Assembly: GCA_037379345.1 (NCBI GenBank)
Contig: CM074524.1
Span: forward strand, 24,486,750 to 24,550,749
Reading direction: 5' to 3'
Source of the DNA: Perna viridis
Taxonomy: Eukaryota
DNA: 64,000 nucleotides
Positions 13,790 through 59,658 of this stretch are shown here, piece after piece (positions within the stretch are counted from its first letter, which is position 1; every line of letters begins with the position of its first letter). The notes beneath the pieces were generated by a model that was not told the DNA's origin, did no database searches, and was given only the letters and a program-made list of their open reading frames with translations. The translations under genes were made by a program, and so were the position numbers.

Positions 13790-16030
13790 CGATTTTTTTG
13801 TGGTCATAGAGGAATCATTCATACATGTGTATAAAGTTAATGGGATATTTCTATGGCATTCCGCTACATAAAAAAAAACTAAGTAACAAATTTTCATCCG
13901 ATCAACCATGCAGTACATGTGCCCATTGCTAATCGTGTATAATTAAATCGACTAACATGAAAATGGTCTGTCAGTCTCTCCAAATCATGTTTTTAGTACT
14001 TAAAGACATATCACCTTGTAAGCAGACAATATTTGCCAAAAAAAATGGATGACAAATAAGAAAATGGCGGAAAAAATTGCGAGCCTTTTGCGCGCCTTTT
14101 GTACGTTCTTTAAGGTTACTAATTGCTTTGCTTTGATATCAGAAAGGAATCACCTGAAGCCAGTTTTTGAAAAACTCTCCTTCAAATGTTCCATTCAGGG
14201 AATTTGTACCTACAAGTATATATTTAGTTGTTACGTTATGATTAATTAGTGTATGTTTATTATCGGTACATGTTTCAAGAAAATAAATTCGATAAAACCA
14301 AATCCTTTATTTGTTTGTTTGTTTGTTGGAAATAGGGAAAGGTGGGTAGGGTCGGGCAATTTAGCCTCCTGTTGCGGAACCCTATGGTTCCTACTCCGGG
14401 AGAATACCACAGTAGGGTTCTTTAACGTGCGAGGAACATGGCATCTTTCCCAACACGGTGTACCACTATGGTTTGCGGTTAGGTTTTCCGTATTATAACC
14501 TGACAACCCCAGCATGTAACACGCCAGGGGTACCCCATTCCACCACCTGGGGCACACATCCCAGTTGCTTTGTGGGCAGAGCGCCCTAACCCCCGGCAAG
14601 GGTTCTGAGCACTATTTAGTCGCCTTTTACGACAAGCTTAGCGCTGCTGCTGGCCTATTCTTTTAACACCTGGACCTGCGCGGGGCCTTTATTTAAAAAC
14701 TTTACGGTTTAAACCAGCCATTCTTAGTAGGTTGTATAAAGAAATAAAGAAATTTAAGTCTGTAAAGATAAGCATCTTTATTTCGTGTATTTCGGCTACA
14801 GCTGAGACATTCGCTTATATTAGTATTAGATATCACACAATCCGTTAACGAGCGCATCAAATTATGCCTATATCTGGCACTGACTAGCCCAGTAGTCTGA
14901 CTTGTTTGACCTGACTTTTTTCAAAGATTCTTAACCGAAATCGGCAGTATTCGAAACTTCAACCTCTAAAACACCGAGCCATCATTCCTTATATTGCAAA
15001 TGAAAAATTTTGTCGGTGCCTGATTTGACTTTCTAAATCGACTTGTGTTTATGAGTACTTCTTGTACACTTCTTTGTATTTATGTTGGATCTTGATACGC
15101 CAGTGTTTTCGTTTATAATGATTGTGGGTGGCTGCAGATAAGTTACACCTTGAAACACATGTACAATACATCACAATTCACAATATTTATATAAGATTTA
15201 GAAATTATTTTTTTGTATTTGTTTCTTCCCAGAAGTTCTGTATTTAAGATAACTAAGTAAGTGGAAGCACAGAATTTGCGCAAAAAACAAATGTAGGATA
15301 TGTGCTATACCAGTTTGTAAATGTATACGCCTATCAGGTAACATGGTATACAACTGTCCGTTCGCCCATCTCTCCGCTCGTCCGTACTAACATGACACAA
15401 CTTACCTTGATTTATTGTCTGTAACTCAAAACTCTAGGCAATTAGTTATTATGATGGTCTAACGGTCTATAAACACTTTTGAGAAATTCCAGTTTCTGAG
15501 TAAGGAAATATCGTCGAAAAGGGGAGAGTTAGGATTTTAAATGCCTTCCCTTTTTATGATAAGGTATATAATTATTACCTTAAATTGTACACGATTGTTT
15601 TCACATCTAAGAAAGAAAAGTGTTTATTTCTGAGTAAAGTAGTGAATCAACCCAGCTTATTTCAAGTTATTGATCGTAAAACCATGGCTTAATATTAAAG
15701 GCCAGACCGACAGTATTTTCAGGTACTTTGATCGAAATGCACATCAAATGAACTATTAGGATAAATGATAATGTCATGATTTTATGATTAAAAACTCCCA
15801 TTTTCTTTTGACTAGTGGAGACGATAGAAACTATACAGCCGTACAGCATCTTTGCATCAATATATTTTTGACGTACACGTTATTAAAACTGGATAATAAT
15901 CAAGGTATTTTTTTTGTTTAGGTTTAATTGAATATATAAAAACAAAACCTGTTTTGAAGGCGAACACGCGTAGTTGCAATGGCTCCAAACATGGTATACC
16001 TAACTCCATATCGTTCAGGCGATACTTTAA
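13790..16030 (+). repeat. Inverted duplication arm (partner about 27105-29090)
   Basis: tgtggtcatagaggaatcatt (13799) vs aatgattcctctatgaccaca (about 29066); gaacacgcgtagt (15962) vs actacgcgtgttc (about 27160); the SINE is present only in this arm. Confidence 0.85.
14313..14686 (-). mobile_element. SINE-like retroelement copy 1, (CAAA)n tail, internal 3' deletion
   Basis: Homologous to 53341-53820; flanked by ctttattt direct repeats (14305-14312, 14687-14694); empty site near 28600. Confidence 0.88.
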
Positions 16031-17050: not shown

Positions 17051-17798
17051 TAAAACGAGACGGAAAAGGAATGATTTGTCACTTCTTGGACGACTCGCAA
17101 TGGAGACGGATGTATCGAATGCAATAAAAATATTACAAGGTAGTTTCATGTCGAGGAATTCATTAAGAAGAGATCACCATTTGTGATGCCGTAAACGTGC
17201 AATGGACGAAAGAATGTGTCAATTATGAACCAAAAAATGGACTGACAAAAGAAAGTGAACCCCAAAAATGGCCTCGGGGAAGACCAGTCGGAGGAAGAAA
17301 AAAGCCGACCAGAAAACAGATGTCACGCCTATAATTGGAACTGCATAAACAGGATCCAAGACCAATTAATTAATCAAGCGAAAAAAGTTTTAAAAGGTAA
17401 ATTGGATGCATTGGAAACAAATGGTTCTAAGAACCCAAGGCCTTATGTAATGAGAAGATATATCATCCAAAATAGCAGGTGCTAAATGGAAAAAAACTAT
17501 GAAAACCAAGACAAGATGTTTTTAACCGAGGAACAAAAAGAAGTAAAGGTCAAATTGAGGTCACCTAATAGAAAAACAGCTTAGACGCCAACTATACTGG
17601 GACAGCAGAGGCAAGAAGACTCATATTAAGATCAAATGTATGACTAAACGGTCGCGGAATCTTAATGACATTGGATCGTGAAAAGTGTCAAATAAAGGGA
17701 GAGAAAGAGTAGAAATAAAGAGCGATTTATGAAACAGAGAATGACCATAGAGCAGACCCGGATTTGAAAAAAAAACAGACAACTTTACCACAAATGGA

Positions 17799-19264
17799 AG
17801 TGTAATCAAAGGAACCAAGATTATAGCGGTAATCAAAAGAATGTAATCAGGGACAAAGACCAGACATGGAAAACTGACATTCACAACAACGAACATAAAA
17901 TAACTAAAATTATACATACAAAGTAACAAAAGTAAATAAGCAACTCGGACCCCACTAAAAATGGGAGAAAAGGACCAGGTGCACCAGTAGGGTAAGCGTC
18001 CTCTGCTTTTCTAGAAACATCCGCCGAGTTTCTCATAAAAAGTCAAGTCCGGGGTAGACAAACGAGGAAAGGAAAACCATGACCCGTTGAATAAATCAGT
18101 TTTCATGGTGCTGATGGATACACCATAACGATCCACGAGTTCATGATGACTTCAATCTTGTAGCAACATAACCCTGTACTAGAATCCTATTTGTTAGAGT
18201 TGTAGCGCGATACAAAAAGTCTGCGTAGTTTCGGCAAGCTCTGGCATAACGTATGATTTGTGATATGAACACTCCATACGCAGGAGCCGAAGGGATGTTG
18301 CCACAGACGAAAGGAAATTTGACAAGTCTGAATGAAAAGTCATCACGTTTGTCGTAAAGTTTGGTCAATAGTTTTCCTTACCATCGATTTCTAAGTGTAG
18401 GTCAAGATATGAGGCTGACTTCACAGTGTCTATAGTATCCTTTATCTCAATTTCTTTTGGCTATTTGCGATGTATCAAATCCCCGAAATTAGGATTGTTT
18501 AAAGATAATACGTCATCTATATAGCACAGTGAGATTGAAGGATCTAGCCAAACAATATTCTTTCTTTCTGATCAGATCAGCTATAAAGTCAGCCTCATAA
18601 GAGTGAAGAAATACGTCAGCAAGTAAAGGAGCACAATTTGTTCCCATTGGAATGCCGACCGTTTGTTGAAAAACACGTCCACCACACTGGACAAATATGT
18701 TGTCGATTAAAAATTTCTGCATTTTGTAAACATCTTCTTCTGTATATTTGGAAGATGATTTGGAATTATTTCTTACAAAGTATGATGAATCTCTACCAAG
18801 AACTATATATTTGTATTTTATGTGTGCCATCTTTTTTGGAAAAAACAACGATGTATAATGTTTTTAAGTCGGGACTTTAACTGAGTATGGGGAATAGAAG
18901 TATACAGTGTTGGAAAATCATAGATTTTAATGCTATTATATTCAGATAATAGTTTTGAACTGATTGTCTCCAAAAGATCTTTGGAATTTTTCAGGATCTA
19001 CATTGAATTAATACCACTACTGGAGTAACAAGTGTTGTGATAGGACTGTAGACCATCTTTGACAGTTGTGAGTATAGAAGTTAAAAGTTTTGAAAGAGGT
19101 TTGGTGGTACATTTTGCAGATCCAGCTATGAAACATTGTTTGTATGGATTCTTGTGAAGTTTAGGAATCCAGTACATAGACGGTAAATCACAATCATTGT
19201 CCTTGGTAGAGAGACCAAAAGAGGATAGCACAGATTTATGGTTTTCCACAATCACTTCTTTGGA
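17799..19264 (-). mobile_element. Penelope-like (Naiad-type) element, 5'-truncated, frameshifted RT
   Basis: LPSMYWIPKLHKNPYK, QQTVGIPMGTNCAPLLAD and LYDKRDDFSF peptides; collinear with 33574-35065. Confidence 0.92.
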
Positions 19265-21260: not shown

Positions 21261-22318
21261 AAAAAAATGAGCGAAATGAACATACTATATTGCTCACATG
21301 AATAAATAACTCAACACATGATTTATATTTTAGGTAGAAAACACAACATCACCCTATTCTTGTACTTATAAAGTCCATAACTCAAAAACGAAAAGCATTA
21401 ATTTATGAAAATCGAAAGGGAGTTAACATCAGTAAGACGAAAAAATTCATCAAAGTTTTACAAAAAAATGTGGTAGCATATTTGAGTTATTGTGCAAAGT
21501 TTGAAGACTGGCATATAATGTACCATAAAATGCCCCATCTAGACAGACAGACGTATGAACAAATATTGGCCCTAACAAATGGATACAGAAATTAAAACAT
21601 TAAATATTTAGTTAAAGAATGAGCTTGTATTATAATAGGGATAAAAGTGAATAATCAGAAAGTTACCAATATTGGTATTTCGGTACTGTACATTTCGATT
21701 TTTTAAAGGAAAAAGCATTATAAGCGTAGATTGTGTAACTTTATTTTGTTTCAGATGTGGAAATCAGGCAAAACATTTTTTTAGGTCAAATTTGTAACAC
21801 ATCATGCAAAATAATGTCAATTTAAGTGGGTGTGTGCCGGGTCCATCTTCTATGAGTTCGCGCCTAAGTATTGATTTTGTAAACAAACTATTGCTCTAGT
21901 TTTTTTTTCAATATTGCTACTTTCGGATGACGACTTACTTACATACGCGTACAATAGTATGCAGAAAATAAATATTAATATCCTACTAACTTTATTTGCC
22001 TAATTCCGTTTGTCGTTTTATGCATTTTTGACTCCTTGTACTCCAAATCGTTTAAAGCATGTTTTATAATTACGACCTACAGTCACACTGGCGATATTAT
22101 ATTAAATAAATAAGATCTTAAATGATGCAACAACTCATTTGATTGAAAAATGAATTATATTTCTTTACTGTAATATATATGACTTAAGCATATTTCATAT
22201 ATTGTATTCATATTTTTCGTGTTTTGTCTTTAAACCCAATAGGACAATTGAAGAAAATAATCCAGTTACCGACATCGTATTTTATTTCGTCAACTTTTGT
22301 TACCAACAGATCTTCGAA

Positions 22319-22750
22319 AGAATAATCAAGGGAACCAAGGTTATAGCGGTAATCAAAAGAATGCAATCCAGGGACAAAGACCAGACATGGAAAACAGACA
22401 TACACAACACAGAACATAAAGTAACTAAAATCATACATACAAAGTAACAAAAGCAAATGAGCAACTCGGACTCCACTATAAACTGGGAGCATGGACCAGG
22501 TGCACCAGTAGGGTAAGCGTCCTCTACTTTTCTGGAAACGCCGGCCGAGTTGCTCATAAAAAGTCAAGTCTAGGGTAGACAAACGAGGAAAGGAAAACTA
22601 TGACCCGTTGAATAATTCAGTTTTCATGGTACAGATGGATACACCATAACGATCCACGAGTTCATGATGACGACCATAAAACTTCTGTAGTGATGACTTC
22701 AATTTTGTAGCAACATTGCCCTGTTTCAGAAGCCTTTTTGTTAGAGTTCT
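22319..22750 (-). mobile_element. Penelope-like (Naiad-type) element, 3' fragment
   Basis: Matches 33574-34000. Confidence 0.9.
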
Positions 22751-33573: not shown

Positions 33574-35970
33574 GAGTAATCAAGGGAACCAAGGTTATAG
33601 CGGTTATCAAAAGAATGTAATCCAGGACCAAGACAAGACATGGAAAACAGACACACACAACAAAGAACATAAAGTAACTAAAATCATACATAAAAAGTAA
33701 CAAAAGTAAATGAGCAACTCGGACTCCACTAAAAACTGGGAACATGGACCAGGTGCACCAGTAGGGTAAGCGTCCTCTGCTTTTCTAGAAACACCCGCCG
33801 AGTTTCTCATAAAATGTCAAGTCCGGGGTAGACAAACGAGGAAACGAAAACTATGACCCGTTGAATAAATCAGTTTTCATGGTGCTGATAGATACACCAT
33901 AACGATCCACGAGTTCATGATGACGACCATAAAACTTCTGTAGTGATGACTTCAATCTTGTAGCAACGTAATCCTGTTCCAGAAGCCTATTTGTTAGAGT
34001 TCTTGCGCGATTTAAAAAGTCTGCAAAGTTTCGGCAAGCTCTGGCATAACGTATGAGTTGTGATATAAACACTCCATACGCAGGAGCCGAAGGGATGTTG
34101 CCACAGATAAAAGGAAAGTTGACAATTCTGAATGAAAAGTCATCACGTTTGTCGTAAAGTTTGATCAATAGTTTTCCTTTACCATCGATTTCTAAGTGTA
34201 GGTCAAGATATGAGGCTGACTTCACAGTGTCTGTAGTATCATTTATCTCAAGTTCTTTTGGGTAGATGCGATGTATCAAATCCCCGAAATTAGGATTGTT
34301 TAAAGATATTACGTCATCTATATAGCGAAAACTGAGATTGAAGGATCTAGCCAAACGATATTCTTTCCTTCTGATCAGATCAGCTATAAAATCAGCCTCA
34401 TAAGAGTAAAGGAATAGGTCAGAAAGTAAAGGAGCACAATTTGTTCCCATTGTAATTCCGACCGTTTGTTGAAAAACACGTCCACCACACCGGACAAATA
34501 TGTTGTCGATTAAAAATTCCAGCATGTTGTAAACATCTTCCTCTGTATATTTCGAAAATGATTTGGAATTATTTCTTACAACGTATGAGGAATCTCTACC
34601 AATAACTATATATTTGTATCTAGGTGTACCACCTTTTTTGGAAAAACAACGATGTATAATGTTTTTAAGTCGGGACTTTAACTGAGTATGGGGAATAGAA
34701 GTATACAGTGTTGAAAAATCATAGGTTTTAATGCTATTATATTCAGATAATAGTCTTGAACTGATTGTCTCTAAAAGATCTTTCGAATTTTTCAGGATCC
34801 ACATTGAATTAATATCACTACGGGAGTAACAAGTGTTGTGGGAGGACTGCAGACCCTCTTTGACAGTTGTGAGTATAGAAGTTAAAAGTTTTGAAAGAGG
34901 TTTGGTGGTACATTTTGCAGATCCAGCTATGAAACGTTTTTTTGTATGGATTCTAGTGAAGTTTAGGAATCCAGTACATAGACGGTAAATCACAATCATC
35001 GTCCCTGGTAGAGGGACCAAAAGAGGAAACACAGATTTATGGTTTTCCACAATCTCTTCTTTGGAGAGAGTGGTTGCAGTATAGGTCTTGTCGCTGCTAT
35101 TATTATTTACGTCTACCTCTAATAATAAACATTGGATATAAAACGTTTTGCAGACAAAAACAATGTTGTTCTGGGCTTTGTCTGCAGGTACGACAACATA
35201 TTTGTCATGTATAGTAGACAATGTTTTTGCTACATCGGGGTCTTTGAAAACAGATGTAGCCTTGGCACTCATTGACCTTCTTACAACTTTCATTCGTTTC
35301 AAAATTGAAGACCTCACGGCCTTTAACCACTCTGACAGAGAATCAAGGTCTTCTTGTTCTCGTTTTATCAATTTTCTTTCATAGTCCTCTACGGCATCCA
35401 TAAGAACTTTAAAGTTATAATTCCAATTTTTTGAGCGTGGTTCACGGTACTTGGGACCTTTAGAAAGGATATTACGCAGAGATTCGTTTTCGATAATGGT
35501 TAAATCTCCCGTAACGACGTGACCAGAAGGACCATATTTGAATGGAGAGGTTTTGCAAGAACAGTCAGGTGGTTTAACCTTGAAGTAGTCTTCAATCTCG
35601 AGGTTCTGCAATAGCCTTTTATAATTGAAAATTTTGGATGCGATGTGTGAAGTATATGAATATGAAATAATTGGTATGGATTTGTCTTTGAAATATGGGG
35701 GAATTTTGTTGGTAACGTTTTTTTGATGGAGGATGTTAGCCAAATTGATTGCATCTATTACTTTGTTGACAAACGGTAGTGGAAGAAATGATCGTTTTTC
35801 TTCATCTTGACTTTTCACCCAAACTGGTTTAAAGAGTCGGTGGAAACCAATATCCAAAATGATGGCAACAAGTCTGTATAATGATGACGTGGGGTCAGAA
35901 ACAGGAATGTCAAGACTTGTTTTGTAAAGGGAGTGTAGTAGAGTGAGAGGTATAGAATAAAGTTTGGTTC
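33574..35970 (-). mobile_element. Longest Penelope-like (Naiad/Chlamys-type) copy, 5'-truncated
   Basis: RT ORF plus about 275 bp 3' UTR ending ...ccttggttcccttgattactc; the reading frame stays open up to an abrupt junction near 35970. Confidence 0.92.
33851..35857 (-). CDS. Penelope-like reverse transcriptase, no endonuclease downstream of RT; probably non-functional
   Basis: Motifs CSC..GHVVTGDL, LSKGPKYRE, VVPADKA, YDFSTLYTSIP, QTVGITMGTNCAP, RYIDDV, LYDKRDDF, GVFISQLIRY; stops shortly after the thumb region. Confidence 0.9.
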   Translation of the reverse strand: MDIGFHRLFKPVWVKSQDEEKRSFLPLPFVNKVIDAINLANILHQKNVTNKIPPYFKDKSIPIISYSYTSHIASKIFNYKRLLQNLEIEDYFKVKPPDCSCKTSPFKYGPSGHVVTGDLTIIENESLRNILSKGPKYREPRSKNWNYNFKVLMDAVEDYERKLIKREQEDLDSLSEWLKAVRSSILKRMKVVRRSMSAKATSVFKDPDVAKTLSTIHDKYVVVPADKAQNNIVFVCKTFYIQCLLLEVDVNNNSSDKTYTATTLSKEEIVENHKSVFPLLVPLPGTMIVIYRLCTGFLNFTRIHTKKRFIAGSAKCTTKPLSKLLTSILTTVKEGLQSSHNTCYSRSDINSMWILKNSKDLLETISSRLLSEYNSIKTYDFSTLYTSIPHTQLKSRLKNIIHRCFSKKGGTPRYKYIVIGRDSSYVVRNNSKSFSKYTEEDVYNMLEFLIDNIFVRCGGRVFQQTVGITMGTNCAPLLSDLFLYSYEADFIADLIRRKEYRLARSFNLSFRYIDDVISLNNPNFGDLIHRIYPKELEINDTTDTVKSASYLDLHLEIDGKGKLLIKLYDKRDDFSFRIVNFPFICGNIPSAPAYGVFISQLIRYARACRNFADFLNRARTLTNRLLEQDYVATRLKSSLQKFYGRHHELVDRYGVSISTMKTDLFNGS

Positions 35971-36349
35971 TAAAACTGTATAACCGGTTTTAATTATCTG
36001 GTATCAACCAATTTGCATTTAATACTATATCATGATCATGATAACTTATAAATGAGATCACAAAAAGACAAAAAACAATGAACATAAAAACACGACGAGA
36101 ACCACTGGCTTGAGACAGGCATATTCAACCTATTTTTATCAATTTCACAAGCAAATCACTTATACACAAACGTCAATATTGTAATTAGCAATTACAATTA
36201 AATAAAAATACATTTTTATAGAAAAGATTGATTTTCAGCCGCATCTTGTTATGGATTCTTACCCTGATTACCACTCGATTACAGATGCTAGTTAACAACT
36301 TGCTATCAAATCTTCTGATCATAACTTTGGTTGAATTTTGACAAAACAA

Positions 36350-43386: not shown

Positions 43387-44579
43387 GTATGGTTTATTGA
43401 CCAATTTGTAAAAAATATATACACATAGTGCCTCAATAATGTTTTATGATTAAATTGCATGCTATTGCGATAAGTAACAAAACGCATTTCAAAATGTACT
43501 ATTGTTATACATATCGTTATAAGGAGAAATGGTATGGTGTATATGTCAAAGAGACAACGAACCCACCAGTATGAAAATGTCAGCCCAAGGCCATCGGTCT
43601 TTAATAAGCCCTTATTCCCATGCATCTGACCCAAAAACATCATTATACACAGGTACGGTGAAAAAGTATAAAGTCAAGTAATATGAAAATAATGTAAAGG
43701 TGAAAACGAAACATGACAAATAGAGGCAAAAAATTCCTGTCTTTTGACAGGCAAATAAAGGCGTTGTGGTTTATATACATGACTTGATCACAACCCTATC
43801 TTTTTAAATTTGACCTTTGTGGAAAAATATATATTACAAATTTAAACACGAAAAAATCATTTCAAAAAGGTCTGACTTCCTCGCTTAACCCAAAATTTCA
43901 ATAAAGATGTAGAATAATTCCTGAAATTACAAATAAAAAAGTCAGTTTTTAATTTTCTATAGGATTTTTTTTTAATGACAAGTTTGTATCCAAATTTTAC
44001 TGTTGAGATAATGTATATGAATTCTTCATATGTCTTTTCAAAAGAGGGGAGTTACAAACAAGACGCTAGTGTGAGTCTATTTAACAATTGTTTTACCCGC
44101 TTTCTCTCTTTTCCTATGAGTTCACGCGTCATTTTATTACCAAGAGTTGAGATAAATGGTACTTTGTGTCTTCATTTTCATTATTCACAAACCCAAATTC
44201 AAAATAGATTTACTTTCAAGGAGTTTACTCTTGGATAGTGATATATCATGAACATTCACAGCTGACAACGGAATATTTAACAAAACAAGTATTCCCGATG
44301 TATACTAAAAACAACAACAACGTTGACTGCCTTAATTTTAAAATGTAAAAAGACTAACACTAGAATTCCTGTAAATGACACTTCTCATAAAGTTATATTG
44401 TACGTACTGTCGATTCTCTTGGGCGCTGAAGTCGCTTTAGTGTATTTTCATATAAAAAATTAATTTATGGCAACGTACAATTGGAAAAGTGCATTACAAT
44501 AGAGGTTATTCATTTGAATCGAAAACCGGATGTCCATTACTGATATAAACTTGGTTCCCTTAATTACTCTTATCATTAT

Positions 44580-45087
44580 TGATTGACTGACTATTGGGGT
44601 TTAACGCCCGAGCAGCAACATGTCAGCTATATACAGGCGATGAACATGAACGGGATGATAAAATGAACATGAAATGATGAAGATGAAATAAAAAAGGGAT
44701 TATAGGGTCGACAAATTTTGATTGCCACAAGATAAAAGGGAGGGATGGAGATGGTCGGGCAATTTAGTCTCTGGTGGCGGAGTGCAAAGGTTCATACTCC
44801 TGTCGAATACCACAACAGGGTTTTTAACATGCAAGGAACGTGGCATCTCTCCCAACACTGTGCACCAGTATGGTTTGCGGTCAGGTTTTCCGTATTATAG
44901 CCTGACAACCCCAGCATGTATCACGCCAGGGGTACCCCATTCCACAACCTGGGGCACTCATCCCAGTTGCTCTATGGGCAGAGCGCCTAGCCCCCGGTTA
45001 GATTTCTGAGCACCATTTAGTCGCCTTCTATGACAAGCTAAGCACTGCTGCAGGCCTATTCGTTTGACACCTGGACCTGCACTGGGC
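44580..45087 (-). mobile_element. SINE-like retroelement copy 2 (full length)
   Basis: Homologous to 53341-53820; (AGTC/AATC)n tail; approximate ttatcatta flanking repeat. Confidence 0.88.
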
Positions 45088-46955: not shown

Positions 46956-48984
46956 TGTAGAGGGATGCTACTAGTTATTTTTTATATATATGAGACTGAA
47001 ATGCAGACACTCACTATATTGGGGTTATTGGCCTTGGATTTACAGTAACTGAGATCTAGTGTTTCATATAGAGATTCATAATTTTATTTTGTAACAACAA
47101 TGGTTTATATACGTTAAAAAATCTATAATAACAACATACCATGAGTATTCACTCATTCACTTTTATTATATTATATTTAGTACATGTGGCAAGAATCCAT
47201 TGTAATATATCTTCAATATTAATGAATTAATACAATGAATATTCATGGGTTCCTTACCCATGAAATTACAATAAAATTAAAAATATGCATGGGAAAATAT
47301 CTGAGTTGAGTCCTGCTAAAAATTATTAATTTAGAAAAACAATTTTTGATTTGGTAAGAGTTGTCAGAAAACCTTATTCTGACTGTAATATAATTTAAAT
47401 AACTGGTTTATCACCAATTCATTTAACCAATAGTACTTCTCAACTCCTCGTTGAGGTTGTACAATGAAAAGTTTATTTGTACAAATATTGTCCTCCAATA
47501 TAAGTACATTTTTAAAATAGTTTCTTGTCTCAAGAAAACTCCCTTAAATCCAAATATCTCCTATTTATTCTTATTTAAAAATATCCTGATGATTGGCAAA
47601 GTTCTATGCAAATGATATTGAATTAACTTAAGCTTTGCCTGCGAAAGTTCAGAATTTAACTATAATTATAATAAACCAAAATTTCTAATTTACCATTGTC
47701 TTTGACTTTTCTCTTAAAAGATTAACAAAAAAAATATATTTGAAGTAAAAATAAATACTCATTCTTTAAAAATATAGCTCTCTGAAAAAATACTAACGTT
47801 TACAGCCAAAAGTTTCAACAAGACTATTTTTTAGCGTAATTACGTCACTTGTTGGAAGACGTGCGTTGTTGGAAAAACGTTCACTTCCAACAAATTTACA
47901 AATATTTTAATAAGAATTTATAAAATTACAATAATATTCTAATTGTACATTATTTTAACAATAAAAAACATTCTATGGTGCAAAACATATTTGTTTTATA
48001 TTTTAATCTTAAAGTATAGTTCTATTATGCGTAACATACATTGCGCAACCGAAAGTGTAACTTGAAAACGACAGTACAACGAGTGTTCAGAACCGGTGAA
48101 CAAAAATGACAAATATCACCAATTAGTGCGAGTAAAATCAGCGAAATACATGATACTTTGTTCCTAAATACTATATGTATGAACATTATTACTTTAAAAA
48201 GACTTGACAACTCTCGAATCAGTTTTTATTGAAAAATTGACTCTTCTGAGATTGCGAGATTCTACATGTGGCGCAGTGCGCATGTCACCCGGTTCATTCA
48301 TAAGACCAGAAGATGCTAGTATTTACTATGTATGTTGCCTACTTCCATGATTTAATGGAAAAAATATCGAGACTCGTATGACAACTTATTCAAAGAAAGC
48401 AACAAAAACTACAGGGTTTGATGATTACAAAACTACAACAAATATGCGTAAAAGCCGTTCAACAATGGAACATCCAACTGTAAAAGGACTAAACACATGG
48501 TGACCACGTGGTTTGCAGCAGATAACAAGTGGACACAAGTGGTATCTACTTCAATATTTGTGACTTGTGATAATTATATTTTATAATAATTTCTACCTTG
48601 CAAATCTTGTAAAATTTGATATGGCAAATATGAATTAAAATGAAAATACATGTCATGTCATGTACAAATATAATGAAGTAAAGGTTTTAGATCTGTCCAT
48701 TTACTGAAACAGTGTTGCACATCACTGTGGCAAATTATGATTGGATATATCATTCGTGTACATACTCATAGGTTACATACATAAATAAACATGCATATTC
48801 ATAAAATATTAGCTTTAATTTCTTCAACCCATTGAATATTCAAATACACATGGTAAAAAAACAACACGTCTATCTATATTATATATGGCCTATGGTTATT
48901 TAATCATGAGATAATAACCTGATAAACGACTCAAGTGTGCTTTACTAAAATAAATGTATACCATGGCTAATGGTGTTCTCTACA
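46956..48984 (-). repeat. 3' LTR (2029 bp)
   Basis: Direct repeat of 57785-59290; adjacent PPT agaaaagggggtaaaa on minus (48985-49000). Confidence 0.93.
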
Positions 48985-49669
48985 TTTTACCCCCTTTTCT
49001 ATCATTTGCGTCCTCGCAAATACTTATTACATAATAAAATTGCTACATCTTAACATATGTACATGTATGTACTTTTGTCTTTCAGAATGCTGTTATCAAC
49101 AGCCATAACAAAATTCTGGATTGAAGATCAATCATTTATCTGCATGAAAATTGCTAAGTTTATATCGGGTTACCATAATTTACTAGACTAATAAATTTTG
49201 ACTATTTCAATTGGATATTAAGGTTCTTTTTTAACATTTCTTTTTCACTGTAAAAAAAAATCTTCTATACTAAATAAATATGTGTACTGTTTGTTATATA
49301 TCTATATTCTTTCAGGTGGATGAACTACTTAGAAATCAGCTCATCGTTTCTACAGCCTGACCCTGGAAAATATGATACTACAAATTTCAATGGAATATTC
49401 GAACAATTCTATTTAAGGAGAGTATATCTGCACATCAACATTCAGTGATCAAAATATTCTCAAACTATAAATACCAAGTAAATTATTTATTTTTTTTAAA
49501 TCTAAATATAGATTCATCAATTTGATTTCTGGATTATTCAAAATAAATTTTTGGCTGTAATCAATAACCTTAAAAATCTGCTAACTTTAAAAATACCTGA
49601 AACTTGACGACTATTTAATACCCAAATTTTTTAAGTACAATATCCCTTAAAATATTTTGATTGTCTAAA

Positions 49670-50969
49670 TTATTTCTTTTTCGTTGTAACCGGACTTCAT
49701 CTTTCTGTTAGTGAACCTTGGTTTAGGTTGAGGATACTGTATTGACTCTGGTCGGCTACTTTGATGGTAGTAAGAGTTAAGGCGGTCAACTAACCTTGAC
49801 TGCCTTGCTAAATTGCGCTCTTGTTGCCTGACTTGACCTCTTAGGCAGCAGATTGCGGAAGAAAGGTCCTTGATATAGGCACTATTTTTGGTTTGTTCCT
49901 CAAGTATTTGTAATTGTTGGTTTGTAATTTGTTTTAGGGCATCTAGTATTGAGTTCGACTCTGAATTAGCACTCCCAGTGATAGCAGGGTTTTTAGGTGT
50001 AAATGCTGGATTTATATTGGTTGTTTCTGGAACTGAATTACTGACAGGTTCTGAAAAAGGTTAAATGGCTCATCTGTCCCCATAAGCTGGGACAGAAAGT
50101 TCTCAGTTTCTTGAACCTCAGCTTCTCTATCAAGCAGATGACAAACTGGAGAGCTCATCTCTGGGAAAAATGGCATGGCAGAGCAGTTTATTTGTTCAGT
50201 TACGTCAACAGGTGTGGATGATCTGGGCTCAGAAGTAGTTGTTGTGGTCTGAGCAACAATTGTCAAATTGGCTGGGACACGAGAAAATAAGCTGTCACAG
50301 GTTGTCAGTTGTACTGTTGTGGTGCTTGAGCGGCTACTAGTTATCTGTGGAGGACCCATTAGCATATACTGGTTTAAAGATGAGATGACATTGTGGGTTG
50401 TAATTGATGTTCGTTGATAGGTTTGTGTTGCTGGTGACTGGTAAAATAACGAAGAGTGCGTGGGACTATATGGTATAGTAAGAGGAGAATCTGAGGTACT
50501 TGCTGCAAATGTGGTTAAATCAAAATTTTTGTGGTGGTGGATATCTTATTTGAGATGAGATGAAAGTCTGTATCTGAGGTTGTTGGGTAGTCACTGGTTG
50601 CCTGTTGAAGTTAGCAGTTTGCCTTTTCCTCTCTGCCCAATATTGTGCACTTTGTTGGCGAGATAGAACCACCATATCAACACCAATTTTAATTATACAA
50701 GGATTAAGATTGGTAAAACTATAGGCTTCCTCTCCTTTGAAATTTGGACCCAGAGCAGTCTTCTGTCTTTTGTGTGTTTCGAATGTTCTAATGTGCCTCT
50801 CAAATTGATGGCGGTAATCACCCCTGTACATACACAAGGTACAAAAGTACCTATGCTGGTCTAGAGCCAGATGAGTCTTCATAATATGATCCCCTACCCT
50901 GGTTCTTTCCCCCATATTTTTAGTTTCTTGGTAGGATTTTACAAGGACTCTTCTCAGATGCCTCACCAT
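49670..50969 (-). pseudogene. Extra ORF 3' of pol: zinc-finger-like N-terminus, Ser/Thr/Pro/Gln-rich middle
   Basis: DHIMKTH...RYFCTLCMYRGDYRHQFERHIRTFETH in 50520-50969, continued by 50012-50365 and coding-like sequence to about 49670; same strand as pol, inside the LTRs. Confidence 0.65.
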
Positions 50970-51308
50970 GCATAAAAGTTTTGGAATTTTTTTTAACTAC
51001 ACATGGATTCCTACACACATTAATATTTTATTAATGATATATGACATTATCTGGTGGATTTAATGTTTTGTAAAAAGTAAACCAAAACTCTCAGGTAACC
51101 TTTATATTTTGGTTTGTACATTCCTTGTTTATAACATATACTTAGTTTTAAGACATGCGGTTTTATACCTTACTGATGTCTTACTGATGTCGTGTCCATG
51201 CAACATTTTTATTTAAGTACACCTGAACTCTCAGGCAACATATATATGGGTGTGTAGAAAGGTCATTTATGCACTACACATTTTTCATTTACATTACATT
51301 TTGGACTA

Positions 51309-54300
51309 TCATCCCCACAGTAAACTTTCAATTTGTCGTGAATTATGACCTTTTTTTGTGCCATTTTCATCCATCTGGATTTCATAGTTTATGTCATCAT
51401 ATTTTTTTGTGACTAAATAAGGCCCAGTGTACATAGGTTGTAGTTTTGAACATAAACCTTTCTGTTGGCCTGACTGATACCAGACTTTATCATTGACATT
51501 AAATACAGTTAAATTGGACTTTCTGTCAAAGTAGTCTTTCCTTCTGTTTGCATTTGATTGTAAGTGCTTCCTAGCAGCTTCATGTGCTTTATGAAAAGTT
51601 TCCCTAATCTGGGTAACCTGTTCCCCAAAAGTATTTGTATTTATATCAATTCCTAAGGGGACACCCCCTTTTAATACATCGCTTGGAATTCTTATCTCCC
51701 GTCTCAAAAGCATAAGGTTTGGTGTAAGTGTAGTTGTCTCATCTGGGGTTGCCCTGTATGCCCCAGCTAGACATCCTAAATTTTGGTGCCAATCTGTTTG
51801 TTTCTCTTTATATAGGATTTAATCATTCCTAATAATGTGCGATTGATTCCTTCGCATTGCCCATTTCCTTTTGGATTTCTGGGACTTGTTCTAGTCTTCC
51901 GTATTTCAAGAAATTGACATAATTCTGTGAAAAGGTCACTTGTATAATTTCTGCCTTGGTCTGAGTACAACGAAAGAGGATAGCCATAACGGCTTATAAT
52001 TTCATTTAGAAGTATATTTGCACAAGTGGTTGCAGTTTGGTCAGGGATTGCAAAGACTTCAACCCATTTGGTGAAGTGATCAGTAAAAGTCAGTATATAT
52101 TTATTTCCTCTAGGTGTTAAGAGGAATGGTCCCATAATATCTGTTGAGAGTCTATCCCAAGGTGCACCTGTAGACATACTTAATAATGGAGCCTTGGCTG
52201 ATTTTGATTGTAATTTGTTAGCACCACAAGTTTGGCATTTTGCTTTCCATATTTTAACATCCTTCCTAACTTCAAACCAATAAAACCTCTGCAATAGTTT
52301 TTCTGTGGTTTTTCGTTTCCCCAGATGACCAGACATGATAGAATTATGCATGCTATGCAAAACTGCATGTTTTAATTTCATGGGTGTCAAAAATTGGAAG
52401 TAGTGACCTGTATTGTTTTGTTTGAAAAATTCTTTAAAAAACAACCCATCCTTTACTATCAGACTATCCAATTGGTGGCAATAAAATCTGGTAGCAGGAC
52501 TTTTGCTTTGCAATTCATTCTCAAAGGGCTTATTGTTGGAGATTTTCCATTTCCGTATATGTCTAATGTCCTCATATTTTTCTAGTAATTGTCTCAATTC
52601 GTCAATACTATGACCCATGTTCCATACAGTAAAGTCATCATATTGAGATGTTTGATTTCTACTTTTTACTCTTTTAATAAAGAGTTTTCTGAATATTCAG
52701 AGTTTTTAGTATATGTTGTCCCTTCTTGGGGTATTTTCATGCTACTTATCATATCTCTAGCTCTTCTGGTACATTTTTTACAGGGCCCGCATTTAAGATA
52801 TTCCATGTTATCATTCATAGGAGAGTCACAATCCCTCGTATTTGTGCATCGAGACTTGAAATCAGCATTGCCGTGTTTGGACCCTTGTCTGTATTGTATT
52901 GTGAAATCAAAGGCTGACATGATTTCCATCCACCTAGCAATTCTGCCTTTAGATTCTTTTAAGCCCAATAGCCAAATAAGAGCTTGATGGTCAGTTCTCA
53001 CTGTGAAAGTTCTACCTAAAAGATATTGTCTGTAATATTCTATGAAGTATCGTACAGCAAGAAGTTCCTTGTCTGTGATACAACAGTTTCTTTCGGCCTT
53101 ATTCAAAGTACGACTACCATATGCTATAATTTGAAGTGTACCGTCCTGTACTTGTTGTAAGACAGCCCCCAATGTATCGTCACTTGCGTCTGTGTCCAGT
53201 TTGTATTCACCCTCATCTTTGGGGTAAGGTACAAAACCAGGACTGACAAAATGCTGTTTAAGATTGTCAAAAACCTTTTGGCAACTCTCAGACCACAAGA
53301 AAACATTTTAGATTCCTTATTCAGGTCTGTTAATGTTTTAGCCCCGTGCAGGTCCGGGTGTTAAAAGAATAGGCCTGCAGCAGCGCTAAGCTTGTCGTAA
53401 AAGCCGGGGGCTAGGGCGCTCTGCCCACAGAGCAACTGGGATGTGTGCCCCAGTGGTTGAATGGGGTACCCCTGGCGTGTTACATGCTGGGGTTGTCAGG
53501 CTATAATACGGAAAACCTGACCGCAAACCATAGCGGTGCACCCTGTTGGAAAAGATGCCACGTTCCTTGCACGTTAAAAAAACCCTACTGTGGTATTCTC
53601 CCGGAGTAGGAACCATAGGGATCGGCCACAGGAGGCTAAATTGCCCGACCCTACCCACATCTCCCTATTTCCAGTGACAATCAAAAATTGTCGACCCCAT
53701 TGTCCTTGTGTCCCATCCCTTTTTCATTTTATCATCAATTTCATGTTCATCGTCTGAATATAGCTGAAATATTGCTGCTCGGACGTTAAACCCCAACAAA
53801 CAAACAAACAAACAAACAAACTGTTAATGTTTTAACTAACTCTGAAAAATGATTAATATATCTACGGTAATAGCTACCCATACCAAGTACATGTCTCACT
53901 TCTTTTACTGTTTTTGGGGTTGGGCACTGTAAAAGTTTGGCAACATTATCATGGTTTGGCTGTACGCCCTTTTCCGAAACAATATGACCCAAAAATGTGA
54001 CTTTAGTTTGAAAAAATATTACATTTCTCCGGTTTAAACCAGCATCTTTTATTCTATTTAGGACTATATCTAGTCTCTCTAGATGTTCTGTAAAATTAGA
54101 TGAAAATAAAATAATATCATATAGGTATATCAATAAAATTGCCACTGAAGGCCATTTAGAACAAGTTCAATAAGTCTTTGACAACAAGCAGGTCCATTTG
54201 TTAGTCCAAATGGTAATGTTTTATATTCATATAGACCAAATTTGGTTGAAAAGCAGTTTTGTGTATATGTTCATTCTTAACAGGAATCTGATTGAAACCA

Positions 54301-55892
54301 CTGGTAAGATCGAAAGTACTAAATAGAGAAGCTCCAGGTACAGTGTCTAGACAGTCTTGAATTCTTGGAAGGGGCCATGCATCATTTTGTGTAACAGAAT
54401 TCAGAATTCTATAATCAACACATGTCCTTACTTTCCATTTTTATTGAGGATTAACACCAAAGGACTTGACCATGGATATGTGGACTATGTGTATTATGTC
54501 TTGTTTTTCCATTTGTTGAATAATTTTCATTTCTTCTTTTACATAAGCAAATGGAACTCTGCATGGAGGTTGCTTCACAGGTTTAGCATCTCCTGTTTCA
54601 ATACTGAACTCCAGGAGTGTAGTTCTACCTAGGTCAGTTTCATCTTTAGAGAAGGTGTTTGAGTATTTTTCAAGCAAATTTTCAATTGCTGTCTTTTCAG
54701 CTTCTGTTCGACCTGGAGCAATATTTTCATACACATTTAATAAGTGGCTTAGAACATTTCCACTTTTCCCACCCTCTGAAGTCCCCTTTTTGCTTAGACT
54801 CTTTTCCCACCCTCTGAAGTCCCCTTTTTGCTTGGACTTCTGATAATGCCTTCATTGGTTTCCCAATTTACAGGCTTTGGTTGTAGCAATTTCGGTCTTT
54901 TCAATGCATTTTCATTTCCCCTTTTAGCACTGTCCTCACATTCAAATAATGTTACAGGAGTATTATCAACTATTTCAGCTGAACCAATTATTGTGTTTCG
55001 GTATAATGTATTTTCATAGTCATATCGATTCAGAATCCTGGCTTTGCATGTGACACTTTTACTGATGTCAACTAGGCATGGTGCCATGATAAGGGAATAT
55101 TTTTCAGAGAAATCGTCAGAAGGTTCTAGTAAACATTTTTTTTCCAAATTTAATAGGATCATCATGCTTGCGATCTACAAAAACATCTATTAAAATTCCA
55201 CTTCTAGGGGGGATATCAAAATTTTGAGCCACGTAAATTTTTCTTATATGGTTGTTAGTATTGCCAATTTGAGTGCATTGAATAACATGATTACCTAGCA
55301 ACATAATTCCATCTTTTAATTTCAAATGTACAGGTTCCCATTTAGATTTCATTAGAACATCTAGCCCCAACAAGGCTTCATCTTCTATATTAGCTACTAT
55401 CATTTCGATTTCAAAACATAGATCTCCCAACATTACTTCAAAGGTGCCTTTCCCTAACTCCTGCAGGGGTTTGCCATCAGCACAAGATAAAGTGTCAGAC
55501 TTGACTAAAGTTGGTCTTTTACAATTAGGAATTTTATGGAAAGCATTAACAGACAACTCTGTACGAATTGCTCCAGTATCCACTGTAAAATTAACCTCAG
55601 ACCCGAGGACATGTCCTTCGACGTAGATTCCATCACTTCGAAGTACCTGTCGTTTTATTAACTGTTCTGTTACTATTTGTTCATTTCCTACTTCAGGATC
55701 TGAACTTACAGAATTCTTCTCTTCCTCGACAGAAGTAGAAGATACATTACTATCTACAAAAGTTTTACTATTTTCATTCTCAAATATTATTTCCTCTTTC
55801 TTACTATGAGTTTCAGGGGTTATGTTGCTAGGTACATGTATCTTGTTTTTCACATCAGTTATATGACCTCTTTCAAAACATTTACGAGTCAA
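51309..55892 (-). pseudogene. pol: Gypsy pol (protease, RT, RNase H, integrase), disrupted and interrupted by a SINE
   Basis: FTVDTGA; LIYLYDII (YLDD mutated); LDTDASD..GAVL, DKELLAV, RTDHQAL; H...GHLG...CQTC; STDIMGP, SDQGRNY, CEGINRTL; YTGPY. Confidence 0.93.
53341..53820 (+). mobile_element. SINE-like retroelement copy 3, nested in Gypsy pol
   Basis: 14-bp TSD ctgttaatgtttta (53327-53340, 53821-53834) and (CAAA)n tail. Confidence 0.93.
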
Positions 55893-55934
55893 CTCCGGTT
55901 CAGTTTAAAGATTATCCCTCAGGTGTGGCCTCAT

Positions 55935-57682
55935 TTAAGGGGGAAGTGGAATTTTGTGTAGTTGAGCTGGGGAAGTATTGAAAGTTTGTCTATTATCACC
56001 AATGGGTGCACTATTACTTCGCTGTGCTTGGGGAAGAATATAAGTTCTTCTATGTTCATAACTAGTTCTGTCATTGCCAGTATTTTGTCTATTTGGATTG
56101 CCGTAACAATTCCTGGCAAAGTGTCCAGGTTGGCCACAGCAATAACAAATTGGGATGGTTGATGTGGTATTTTTGTCTATAATAGACTTTCCCACCTCAG
56201 TACTCTGATTGAAATAAGGTCTTCTTTGTTCAAATGTTTGACTTTGTCCTTTACTAGTCTTGTTATGACCATTTATTTAAGTTTTCTCTTATTCTCATAC
56301 ATTGTATCAAACATTTCTTTTAGTTCCTGTTTTGTTATCTTAATAATTTCATTTTCTCTCCCATTTTTATTTTTTGATCTATCATTTTTCATCTGTCCCT
56401 GCTGGACATTTTGTCTAACATAATCATTTTTCTTTACTTGTCTTAATTGTTTGGATTTTCCCCCATTATCATAATTAACTTCCACCCTTGACATGGTTTC
56501 TTTGTAAGTGATAACCTCCTGTACTGCTTCTTCGATAGTTTTAAGATCTTTTAAAAGTTCAACATTGACCCTTGCATCATTATCTGATAACCCCATTAAG
56601 AATCTTTGAAGTAGATCCTCATGTCTAGTTTTAGCATCTCTGTTAGTATATGCTTTCTCATACAACGTTTTTAGTTCAGCTGCATAATCTGCAACACCTT
56701 CATTTGATTTTTGGCATCTTCTATTAAATTGTATTTTATAAGTTCTCTTATTTTCAAAGACACCAAATCTGTTTTTAAGTTCTCTTACTAGTTTTGAATA
56801 ATTGTTCAGTGTTTTACTATTCATTTGGTCAAATGTGAAATCACCAGCTTCACCTTGAAGTCTGGTAAGCAGTTCACCCAATTTGGTTGTATCATCCCAG
56901 TTTTGTAAATTGGCAACTGCCTCAAATCTGTTTATCCAAACTTCCCATTTTTCTTTTCCTGTAAATGAAGGACGTTTTGCATTTGAAAACCTAGTTTTGG
57001 ATCTACTATCTCGACTTCTGCTATTACACTTGTCCCTATACTGGCAGTGTCAGTATCTGAGTCCACCCCATTTTGTATAGCCTCATCATCAGTCTCATCA
57101 CCTTCAGATTCTGATGAAGAGTTGGACTGAATTAGTAGGTTAAACTTTGAAGTATGGGATTTTACTGAAAATTGAGTTTTAGAACCTTTTTGTTTCTTTT
57201 TAAATGCCTTTTGAGTGTTTGGCTCAGTAACCTTATTTACAGACTGTTTTGTCAGCCCAATGAAAGCATTTGTATTGCTGTTACTATCTGACCAGTCATA
57301 TCTTGAATGGAATTTTTAATAGATAGATACATTCCAGTGTCACCTTGATTTAAGATTTCATGCTGGTTTTGTATTTCATTAGTATCTCGTCTATTACTCC
57401 TAGACCTTCTAAGTGAACGTTTTTTTCTAGGGCTAGATTTTTTATTGAATTAAATTTTAGACTAGATCTCAGTACTGTTTTTCCCTGTTCAGCATCTGTG
57501 TCAGTGTCTGTTATTTCTGACAGTTCAGTATCATAATTTTCAGGTGCAGACTGGTGAGATGTGCTTGGAACATTTTCAAAATCTGATGTTTCATCTGGGC
57601 CAGTCTCATACTGACTTATATTACCAGTTTCCGCAGTTTCGATGTCTTTGTTAGATTGACGTGTAAATCTTGGTTTACCCAT
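55935..57682 (-). pseudogene. gag: Gypsy gag (disrupted)
   Basis: Capsid-like ELKNRFG...FNRRCQKSNEGVADYAAELK...FLMGL and zinc knuckle CYCCGQPGHFARNC. Confidence 0.88.
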
Positions 57683-57758
57683 TATTTTATTTTGAAGTTC
57701 ACAATTTTATTTGCTTACTGCTCTAGCTAGGTTAAAATCACTGGATCCAAAAAGAAAT

Positions 57759-57778
57759 GGATCCCGCCGAGGATGCCA
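57759..57778 (-). other. Primer-binding site
   Basis: TGGCATCCTCGGCGGGATCC, 6 nt inside the 5' LTR; cognate tRNA not assigned. Confidence 0.8.
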
Positions 57779-57784
57779 AAATTT

Positions 57785-59290
57785 TGTAGCGGCTAGGGGT
57801 GCTACTAGTAATTTCTCTATATATATGAGACTGAAATGCAGACACTCACTATATTGGGGTTATTGGCCTTGGATTTACAGTAACTGAGATCTAGTGTTTC
57901 ATATAGAGATTCATAATTTTATTTTGTAACAACAATGGTTTGTATAGGTTAAAAAAATCTATACTAACAACATATCATGAGTATTCACTCGTTCACTTTT
58001 ATCATATTATATTTAGTACATGTGGCAAGAATCCATTGTAGTACCAAAATATATCTTCAATACTTAATGAATTAATACAATGAATATTCATAGGTTCCTT
58101 ACCCATGAAAAAATACTAAACGTTTACAGCCAAAAGTTTCAGCAAGACTAATTTTTTAGCGTAATTACGTCACTTGTTGGAAGACGTGCGTTGTTGGAAA
58201 AACGTTCACTTCCAACAAGTTCACAAATATTTTAATAAGAATTTATAAAATTACAATAATATTCTAATTGTACATTATTTTAACAATGAAAACATTCTAT
58301 GGTGCAAAACATATTTGTTTTATATTTTAATCTTCAAGTACAATTCTATTATGCGTAACATACATTGCGCAACCGAAAGTGTAACTTGAAAACGAAAGTA
58401 CAACGAGTGTTCAGAACCGGTGAACAAAAATGACAAATATCACCAATTAATGCGAGTAAAATCAGCGAAATACATGATACTTTGTTCGTAAATACTATGT
58501 GTATGAATGTTACAACTTTAAGAAGACTTGACAACTCTCGAATCAGTTTTTATTGAAAAATTGACTCTTCTGAGATTGCGAGATTCTACATGTGGCGCAG
58601 TGCGCATGTCACCCGGTTCATTCATAAGACTAGAAGATGCTAGTATTTACTATGTACGTTGCCTATTTCCATGATTTAATGGAAAAAATATCGAGACTCG
58701 TATGACAACTTATTCAAAGAAAGCAACAAAAACTACAGAGTTTGATGTTTACCAAACTACAACAAATATGCGTAAAAGCCGTTCAACAATGGATCATTCA
58801 ACTGTAAAAGGACTAAAACACATGGTGACCACGTGGACACAAGTGGTATCTACTTCAATATTTGTGACTTGTGATAATTATATTTTATAATAATTTCTAC
58901 CTTGCAAATCTTGTAAAATTTGATATGGCAAATATGAATAAAAATGAAAATACATGTCATGTCATGTACAAATATAGTGAAGTAAAGGTTTTAGATCTGT
59001 CCATTTACTGAAACAGTGCTGCACATCACTATGGCAAATTATGATTGGATATATCATTCGTGTACATACGCATAGGTTACATATATAAATAAACATGCAT
59101 ATTCGTAAAATATTAGCCTTCATTTCTTGAACCAATTGAATATTCAAATACACATGGTAAAATAAAACAACACGTCTATCTATATTATATATGACCTAAG
59201 GTTATTTAATCATGAGATAATAACCTGATAAACGACTCAAGTGTGCTTTACTAAAATAAATGTATACTATGGCTAATGGTGTTCTCTACA
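57785..59290 (-). repeat. 5' LTR (1506 bp, lacks a 522-bp segment)
   Basis: TG...CA ends; followed on minus by the PBS. Confidence 0.93.
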
Positions 59291-59430
59291 ATATATACAA
59301 ACGACTTCTTCTATCAACAGGCGGACTGACAGTGACAATACCATACACAAATCTGTCAAAAAGATGTAGGTAAAAGGAATAGTTTATTTATACAATGATT
59401 GTTAAATAGTTGTCAATCGTCAATTTACGT

Positions 59431-59658
59431 TGCACCACTATGGTTTGCGGTCAGGTTTTCCGTATTATAGCCTGACAACCCCAGCATGTAACACGCCAGG
59501 GGTACCCCATTCCACCACCTGGGGCACACATCCCAGTTGCTCTGTAGGCAGTGCGCCCTAGCCCCCGGCTAGGGTTCTGAGCACTATTTAGTCGCCTTTT
59601 ACGACAAGCTGATCGCTGCTGCACGCCTATTCTTTTAACACCCGGACCTGCACGGGGC
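59431..59658 (-). mobile_element. SINE-like retroelement copy 4 (5' half only)
   Basis: Homologous to the head half of the other copies; same 5' start. Confidence 0.88.

Follow-up and report, generated by a model that had tools for sequence, protein, structure and literature searches.

A pseudoknot-bearing RNA head predicted at the 5' ends of a Perna viridis SINE family and past the last open reading frames of RNA viruses

Introduction

LP-SINEs, named for a head that is a presumed LINE promoter, have been described from Littorina, Haliotis, Ostrea, Saccostrea, and scallops, and the opening ~70 bp of these SINEs correspond to the 5' termini of Nimb-17_LMi, I-3_DR, and RTE-9_CPB (Matetovici et al. 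2016, PMC4758252). Experiments on the promoter role were called for there, and in the passages of that paper dealing with the head the L1Tc ribozyme appears merely as an analogy. Self-cleaving RNAs are known from the corresponding position of other retroelements: 5' ribozymes have been reported for RTE and further LINE clades (Kojima 2018, PMC5786205), and HDV-like ribozymes cut at the first base of their P1 stem (PMC4908430). The self-cleaving ribozymes of linear RNA viruses are mostly located ahead of ORFs (PMC13725137). Decay from the 5' end is also relevant to retroelements, as a stable 5' fold aids R2 insertion, an effect that the authors tie to such decay (Palm 2024, PMC11331408). Among the viral RNAs that block this kind of decay, class 3 xrRNAs bring Xrn1 to a stop at the base of P1 (PMC12397905), and flaviviral xrRNAs occupy the beginning of the 3' untranslated region (UTR) (PMC11702639) and are often tandem (PMC8374639). 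According to Vicens and Kieft 2021 (PMC8374639), xrRNAs had until then been characterized only in viruses.

Here we describe a SINE family found in a 64,000-nt stretch of Perna viridis DNA (contig CM074524.1, positions 24,486,750 to 24,550,749; referred to below as the window), which is AT-rich animal DNA with a GC content of 0.33. The original prediction, made from the letters of the window, held that four copies of a non-tRNA SINE start at the same base and that their head is a ribozyme or another functional RNA replacing the tRNA head.

Results

The SINE unit is ~490 nt long, and its four copies start where they had been placed, the one at 53341 alone on the plus strand and those at 14686, 45087, and 59658 on the minus strand, each opening with GCCC(C/A)G(T/C)GCAGGTCC (Table 1). 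A covariance model run over the window at E<=1 matched these four copies and nothing more. Target site duplications (TSDs), which had been noted originally, flank copy 1 (8 bp), copy 2 (9 bp, offset by 4 nt), and copy 3 (14 bp, exact) but not copy 4, which has neither tail nor TSD. The classification as a non-tRNA SINE is supported by these TSDs, by the failure of ARAGORN to find any tRNA in the window, and by the lack of a B box in the head; the stated lack of Pol III boxes holds fully for the B box, while A-box-like matches need a mismatch. The hairpin domain is full in copy 1, in which P1 and the pseudoknot helix carry one mismatch each, and in copy 3 its 3' half is deleted after 53403, both as described originally. 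The stretch singled out by the original prediction lies in copy 3, the sole copy with a broken invariant core. This copy is inserted antisense in the pol region of a decayed Gypsy-like element, of which gag, protease, RNase H, and integrase pieces are left and whose two LTRs are 94.7% alike. The window also holds at least nine pieces (D1-D9) of a second dispersed and abundant repeat, e.g., at 11651-12005, 17796-19132, and 22317-22750; the longest copy (33854-35989, minus strand) contains an open frame of 712 codons to which Pfam has no match at E<=0.001.

Table 1. Features of the SINE copies and of the predicted head in the window
Feature	Position	Strand	Remarks
SINE copy 1	14313..14686	-	Head domain complete; internal deletion ahead of tail
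SINE copy 2	44579..45087	-	Older, full length; mismatches in P1 and core
Decayed Gypsy-like LTR retrotransposon around copy 3	47783..59290	-	LTRs 47783-48984 and 58106-59290
5' TSD of copy 3	53327..53340	+	14 bp
SINE copy 3	53341..53820	+	Short deletion within head core; (CAAA)n tail
P1 stem (predicted)	53343-53346 with 53355-53358	+	CCCG/CGGG; closes 8-nt loop 53347-53354
AGAAUA	53366..53371	+	Conserved; at end of length-variable linker
Pseudoknot helix, 3' strand (predicted)	53372..53378	+	Pairs with loop bases 53348-53354
Second domain, 5' half (predicted)	53382..53403	+	P3 5' strand, internal loop, start of GUCGUAARAGGCGACUAA core
3' TSD of copy 3	53821..53834	+	Exact repeat of the 5' TSD
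SINE copy 4	59427..59658	-	Head complete; 3'-truncated

The first ~80 bases of the element are predicted to form a conserved RNA module, consisting of an H-type pseudoknot and a second domain with an invariant core, the 3' half of this domain being missing from copy 3. Copy 3 agrees with the original description in P1, in the loop and A-rich linker, and in the pseudoknot partner; the U at 53347 in the P1 loop is conserved and mostly unpaired. In some families more than 100 nt are inserted in the linker before AGAAUA. The exact hexamer AGAATA, which was not part of the core search pattern, occurs 14 to 60 nt upstream of the core in 95 of 136 listed matches, compared with 7 of 344 control windows. 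Folding of single sequences gives the head no support, since pseudoknot-free minimum free energy folding returned unremarkable z-scores (-1.5 to +1.4).

When the genome was scanned (723 Mb, 46 contigs), the head 23-mer gave 7,062 exact matches and its reversed control none, so the SINE family is not a chance match and comprises at least 7,062 copies. Every match to the head in this genome is a copy of this SINE, no other family with it being found; nor was a partner LINE sharing the SINE tail found, the one LINE family examined having a different tail. Completeness at the 5' end is common, not universal: truncation occurs, and full-length copies share one start base. In a 200-kb region of contig C1 (3330001-3530000) that was picked for SINE density and not for heads, the 5' end (first 6 nt) is reached by 70 of 125 SINE fragments, and 43 of the 83 fragments with an intact 3' end are also 5'-complete; this region is a SINE hotspot in which many short fragments lie in nested clusters. 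Loci chosen by SINE body extend to the 5' end in 24 of 30 cases. Elsewhere on the same contig (9835984-9837543), four SINE heads with a common variant form a tandem array with a 504-nt period.

Junctions were placed in the 80 heads, out of 241 distinct ones, in which a tail goes with a TSD of 10 bp or more. In 56 of the 80 the junction precedes the loop U by 6 nt, and in 67 by 5 or 6 nt; the remainder outside the main class fall at 5 nt (11 copies, 10 with a possibly shared G), 7 nt (6 copies), 8 nt (4 copies), or elsewhere (3 copies). TSDs measure 10 to 15 bp in 79 of the 80 copies, the minimum having been set at 10. These 5' junctions are sharp, in agreement with the uniform starts seen originally in the window. 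In five multi-copy metagenome families, which are probably related and in which 65 of 97 copies have a usable hairpin, the identity between copies falls just past position -6, while the loop-to-core distance ranges from 48 to ~185 nt. Across 15 rows the start position has no conserved base. As the junctions cluster at one distance and identity drops past -6 despite a variable distance to the core, the element end appears to be set by the fold.

The head sequence itself has already been described, and judged by sequence the element is a new LP-SINE family. The "Nimb-17 homology" block of the scallop LP-SINEs (supplementary Fig. S2 of PMC4758252) has the same C-run, loop, and AGAA linker and, by eye, the complementary strand and AAGAGGCGACTAA core of this head as well; the pseudoknot letters of the two differ but stay complementary. 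Homology to the Nimb-17 5' end was judged by eye from this block and from the motif upstream of an I/Nimb-type ORF1 described below. The TSDs, the tandem-repeat tail, and the AATATA hexamer ahead of the tail are as in the Haliotis LP-SINEs (PMC4758252), whereas the SINE body is a family separate from those published. Neither an RNA structure nor viral copies of the head are given in the parts of PMC4758252 that treat it. With the original prediction it had been envisaged that the head might match a known SINE head of known promoter function; the head is indeed known, and its promoter role is presumed in that paper.

Covariation was assessed in three ways. Among 24 family representatives out of 41 clusters, for which P1 was picked automatically, blind to the pseudoknot and wrongly in 5 of them, 135 of 192 pseudoknot cells pair, compared with 104.5±5.7 in shuffles (0 of 20,000 as high) and 53-84 in slid registers. 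A structure-blind MAFFT alignment of 18 representatives, from which long-linker, decayed, and near-duplicate rows were excluded and in which two start points were set by eye, has two-sided changes at all 7 of 7 pseudoknot pairs, between unrelated element families. Its cells pair at 83% in the pseudoknot helix, 86% in P1, and 55% in P3, and the covariation score of 0.367 compares with 0.159±0.021 for shuffles and 0.08-0.17 for slid partners. Under a nearest-hairpin rule, framed after the results of the first test had been seen, the 6 viral rows pair in 41 of their 42 pseudoknot cells, compared with 28.3 in shuffles (p~0.001), and the 9 cellular rows in 52 of 63, compared with 43.4 (p~0.002); the shuffles ignore kinship of rows, and the viral rows come from unrelated viruses.

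Of the stems proposed originally, the pseudoknot thus covaries, whereas the pairing of the GUCG/CGAC hairpin gains no such support: its four pairs are invariant in every sampled row, partly by construction of the search pattern, and relaxed viral scans for GUCG/CGAC variants found none. Within the genome, an A-U to G-C switch in the pseudoknot is present in 7 of 240 heads (Fisher p=4e-7) and counts as one event at most, because it also tracks unpaired subfamily markers.

Databases were scanned with the 17- to 18-nt core as the sole pattern. At least 122 metagenome loci have the core, mostly in repeat families of apparently animal DNA. IMG/VR holds 9 such loci, 7 of them with the pseudoknot upstream; shortening the core to 16 nt yielded 27 loci with the pseudoknot in the same 7, and the other 20, in which it is absent, were rejected as chance matches, as were L095 and L099. 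Relaxed viral scans for variant stems or loops gave no new convincing member among the matches listed. Five distinct RNA viruses bear the motif (Pfam RdRP_4, RdRP_3, noda-like capsid, and A21 capsid; one RdRp-like by Atlas only), one of them in two samples with the same junction. In all five the motif is on the coding strand, 4 to 99 nt past the last stop codon and between 91 and ~190 nt short of the contig end, distances to be read with the provisos that viral contigs may be 3'-incomplete, that the motif of L098 could be intergenic, and that its position in L357 is off by about 6 nt in one placement.

A second copy of the pseudoknot lies 106 nt downstream of the first in one of these viruses (L091/L440), from which it differs by compensatory changes; the contig ends within this copy. 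In a cellular locus (L141:955-1106), an element starts with two complete heads in direct tandem, whose stem letters differ. The motif is also present in a 212-kb DNA virus, which we take to be iridovirus-like, between two ORFs and upstream of one of at least 448 aa that has no Pfam match (L354:1334-1670). Five prokaryote assemblies (L372-L376) contain the motif as well, L373 and L375 near contig ends and L376 ~400 nt upstream of an I/Nimb-type LINE ORF1; these look like eukaryotic DNA in MAGs or symbiont scaffolds rather than signs of a bacterial role.

The genome of P. viridis has an I/Nimb-type LINE of its own (L654:702-6776; contig C8, about 23537700-23543800; loci L407-L426) with an intact ORF1 of 491 aa and an ORF2 of 1,247 aa that includes endonuclease, RT, and RNase H. 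It is young, two copies being 99.7% alike, and its tail is unlike that of the SINE. At its 5' start an HDV-like fold replaces the LP head in 16 of 20 loci, and the strings UGUCGU and GACUAA are common to both heads. That two RNA folds occupy one slot of I/Nimb-type LINEs suggests that they may have a common job, the definition of the 5' end.

Known classes of structured RNA were compared with the head. That it is neither HDV nor hammerhead, as originally stated, was borne out. The nested double pseudoknot of HDV-like ribozymes (P1/P2/P3/L3/P1.1/J4-2) was found in 0 of 17 LP heads, and the I/Nimb-type LINE head of the same genome, used as the control, was positive. The hammerhead core combines CUGANGA and GAAA in a three-way junction; CUGANGA occurs in 2 of 17 segments of 195 nt, outside conserved columns. 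The loose likeness to the pistol ribozyme did not hold up, as the helix order differs, and twister, twister-sister, and hatchet were rejected by eye against consensus features. Among xrRNAs, the three-way junction of class 1/2 (flaviviral) members does not follow from the helix order, and there is no Rfam match to them; aligned against the description in PMC11702639, the head does not have the stacked P1-P2 stem-loop with L2B and AGY of class 3. In position it resembles an xrRNA, being a pseudoknot located where a viral 3' UTR or intergenic region begins. Rfam gave no match at gathering threshold over the window and no relevant E-value match for SINE, viral, or HDV-like LINE heads, a blank that is weak evidence since Rfam also misses the HDV-like LINE fold. 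In a literature search at title and abstract level that included few subscription papers, the head fold and its viral copies appeared in none; supplements and alignments of xrRNA and ribozyme surveys beyond that search may hold the motif.

Discussion

The LP head was already known as a sequence; what is new is that, by comparison across elements and viruses, it appears to act as a conserved structured RNA common to retroelement 5' ends and RNA-virus 3' UTRs. Of the original alternatives of a ribozyme or another functional RNA, the structured RNA is upheld by the covarying pseudoknot, whereas self-cleavage is not the best reading, because the motif lies past the last ORF on the coding strand in five RNA viruses, a typical place for xrRNAs, and because one virus and one cellular locus have it in tandem. 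A binding site common to unrelated RdRps and reverse transcriptases is improbable, which leaves self-cleavage or an action on host machinery.

We consider it plausible, with the balance about even, that the head blocks 5'-to-3' exoribonucleases of the Xrn1/Xrn2 type, a block that would both fix the 5' end of the element RNA and protect it. SINE copies would be transcribed within longer Pol II transcripts (introns or read-through), decay from upstream would trim these to the base of P1, and an APE-type LINE protein recognizing the tail would copy the trimmed RNA, with the result that copies start 6 nt ahead of the loop U; in viruses a 3' noncoding RNA of 90 to 190 nt would be left by this block. 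This reading is favored by the site past the last ORF, the tandem copies, an element end at the P1 base, and a first base that is not conserved. Tandem heads favor it because an efficient ribozyme in second place would sever the first copy, and the location favors it over self-cleavage because the motif follows ORFs, which the ribozymes of linear viruses mostly precede (PMC13725137).

Several observations weaken the case for an exoribonuclease block. Since plain frameshift pseudoknots do not stall Xrn1 (PMC10321173), it would need the second domain to brace the knot. The ~24 invariant bases, a figure partly built in by the search pattern, exceed those of most xrRNAs and would suit a catalytic core or a protein site. 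In xrRNAs a ring of 15-16 nt encircles the 5' end, and linker insertions of more than 100 nt may not suit so tight a ring. The class 3 hallmarks (P1-P2 stack, L2B, and AGY) are absent, the viral contigs may be incomplete at their 3' ends, and one copy of the motif is intergenic in a large DNA virus, with an ORF on either side. Furthermore, a stop at P1 is not peculiar to xrRNAs, as HDV-like ribozymes likewise cut at its first base (PMC4908430) and the sister LINE has an HDV-like fold there.

This last point also speaks for a self-cleaving ribozyme of an undescribed class, which would cut just 5' of G1 and free the element from read-through transcripts, the role of HDV-like and twister ribozymes in other LINEs. 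The junction mode at a single base and the many invariant bases would fit it, as would the I/Nimb-type LINEs, one with a descriptor-positive HDV-like fold in the slot where another (L376) carries the LP motif, and the strings shared by the two heads; 5' ribozymes are reported from RTE and other LINE clades (PMC5786205), and linear RNA viruses can carry ribozymes (PMC13725137). We nevertheless regard self-cleavage as unlikely: a cut in the five RNA viruses would sever the 3' end with no downstream ORF to benefit, the heads are tandem in L091 and L141, the presumed scissile position has no conserved base, and known catalytic cores are absent by descriptor.

Still more doubtful is an RNA that binds a host factor, such as the ribosome, an initiation factor, or another RNA-binding protein, with the 5' end set separately by the Pol II start. 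In viruses such an RNA would serve translation or stability as a 3' element, and in retroelements it would aid the delivery of LINE or SINE RNA to the LINE protein. The invariant 18-nt core in viruses of different phyla and in animal retroelements would point to a shared host partner, and length-tolerant linkers fit a modular binding site, but element ends fixed at the base of P1, whatever the sequence or core distance, would be left unexplained. An internal DNA promoter taken over from the 5' UTR of a LINE, with an incidental fold, as in the published LP hypothesis (PMC4758252), agrees with the position at +1, the lack of Pol III boxes, and the polyA-signal-like hexamer in the tail but is highly improbable as the sole function, because it cannot explain a motif present in RNA viruses without a DNA stage and a pseudoknot with two-sided covariation, and the start-to-core spacing varies by more than 130 nt. 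A promoter role could exist alongside the RNA role.

As a family, the SINE is ordinary. We think it probable that one fold without an Rfam family has moved among animal LINEs and SINEs, a large DNA virus, and RNA viruses belonging to several phyla, that it is a promoter-free definer of 5' ends interchangeable with HDV-like ribozymes, and that it represents either a nuclease-blocking RNA, the first to be native to cellular genomes and present in tens of thousands of copies, or a new class of self-cleaving ribozyme. What was in 2016 a presumed DNA promoter without a mechanism thereby becomes a testable RNA element. A block to Xrn1, if true, would settle whether eukaryotic genomes have xrRNAs and would add a third route to non-LTR 5' ends, besides internal promoters and ribozymes; cleavage by the head would make it a new ribozyme class. 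Either way, the head would be a compact 5' module of the type used to stabilize template RNA in retroelement-based gene insertion.

Compared with known systems, the head shares with the HDV-like ribozymes of R2, RTE, Ingi/L1Tc, and related LINEs its 5' position and, putatively, an analogous job of defining the end at the first base of P1; it has UGUCGU and GACUAA in common with the HDV-like LINE head and lacks the nested double pseudoknot. What it shares with the pistol ribozyme is a P1 hairpin and, past an A-rich linker, a pseudoknot made by the hairpin loop (Harris 2015, PMC4604425); by the definition given there the two differ, in that in the LP head the partner directly follows the linker and both other helices lie downstream. 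Other counterparts are viral, namely class 3 xrRNAs (Tombus-/Solemoviridae, ST9a) and coremin, which like this motif are found at the start of viral 3' UTRs and in tandem copies. In these a hairpin loop pairs downstream over 3-9 bp, compared with 7 bp in this head; the stop at the base of P1 that we propose is the one at which class 3 xrRNAs halt Xrn1 (PMC12397905), and coremin also requires a downstream hairpin (PMC10321173), comparable to the second domain here. In contrast to class 3 xrRNAs, the head is without the P1-P2 stack, L2B, and AGY and adds a long invariant second domain, and in contrast to viral xrRNAs in general, the motif is found mainly in cellular retroelements.
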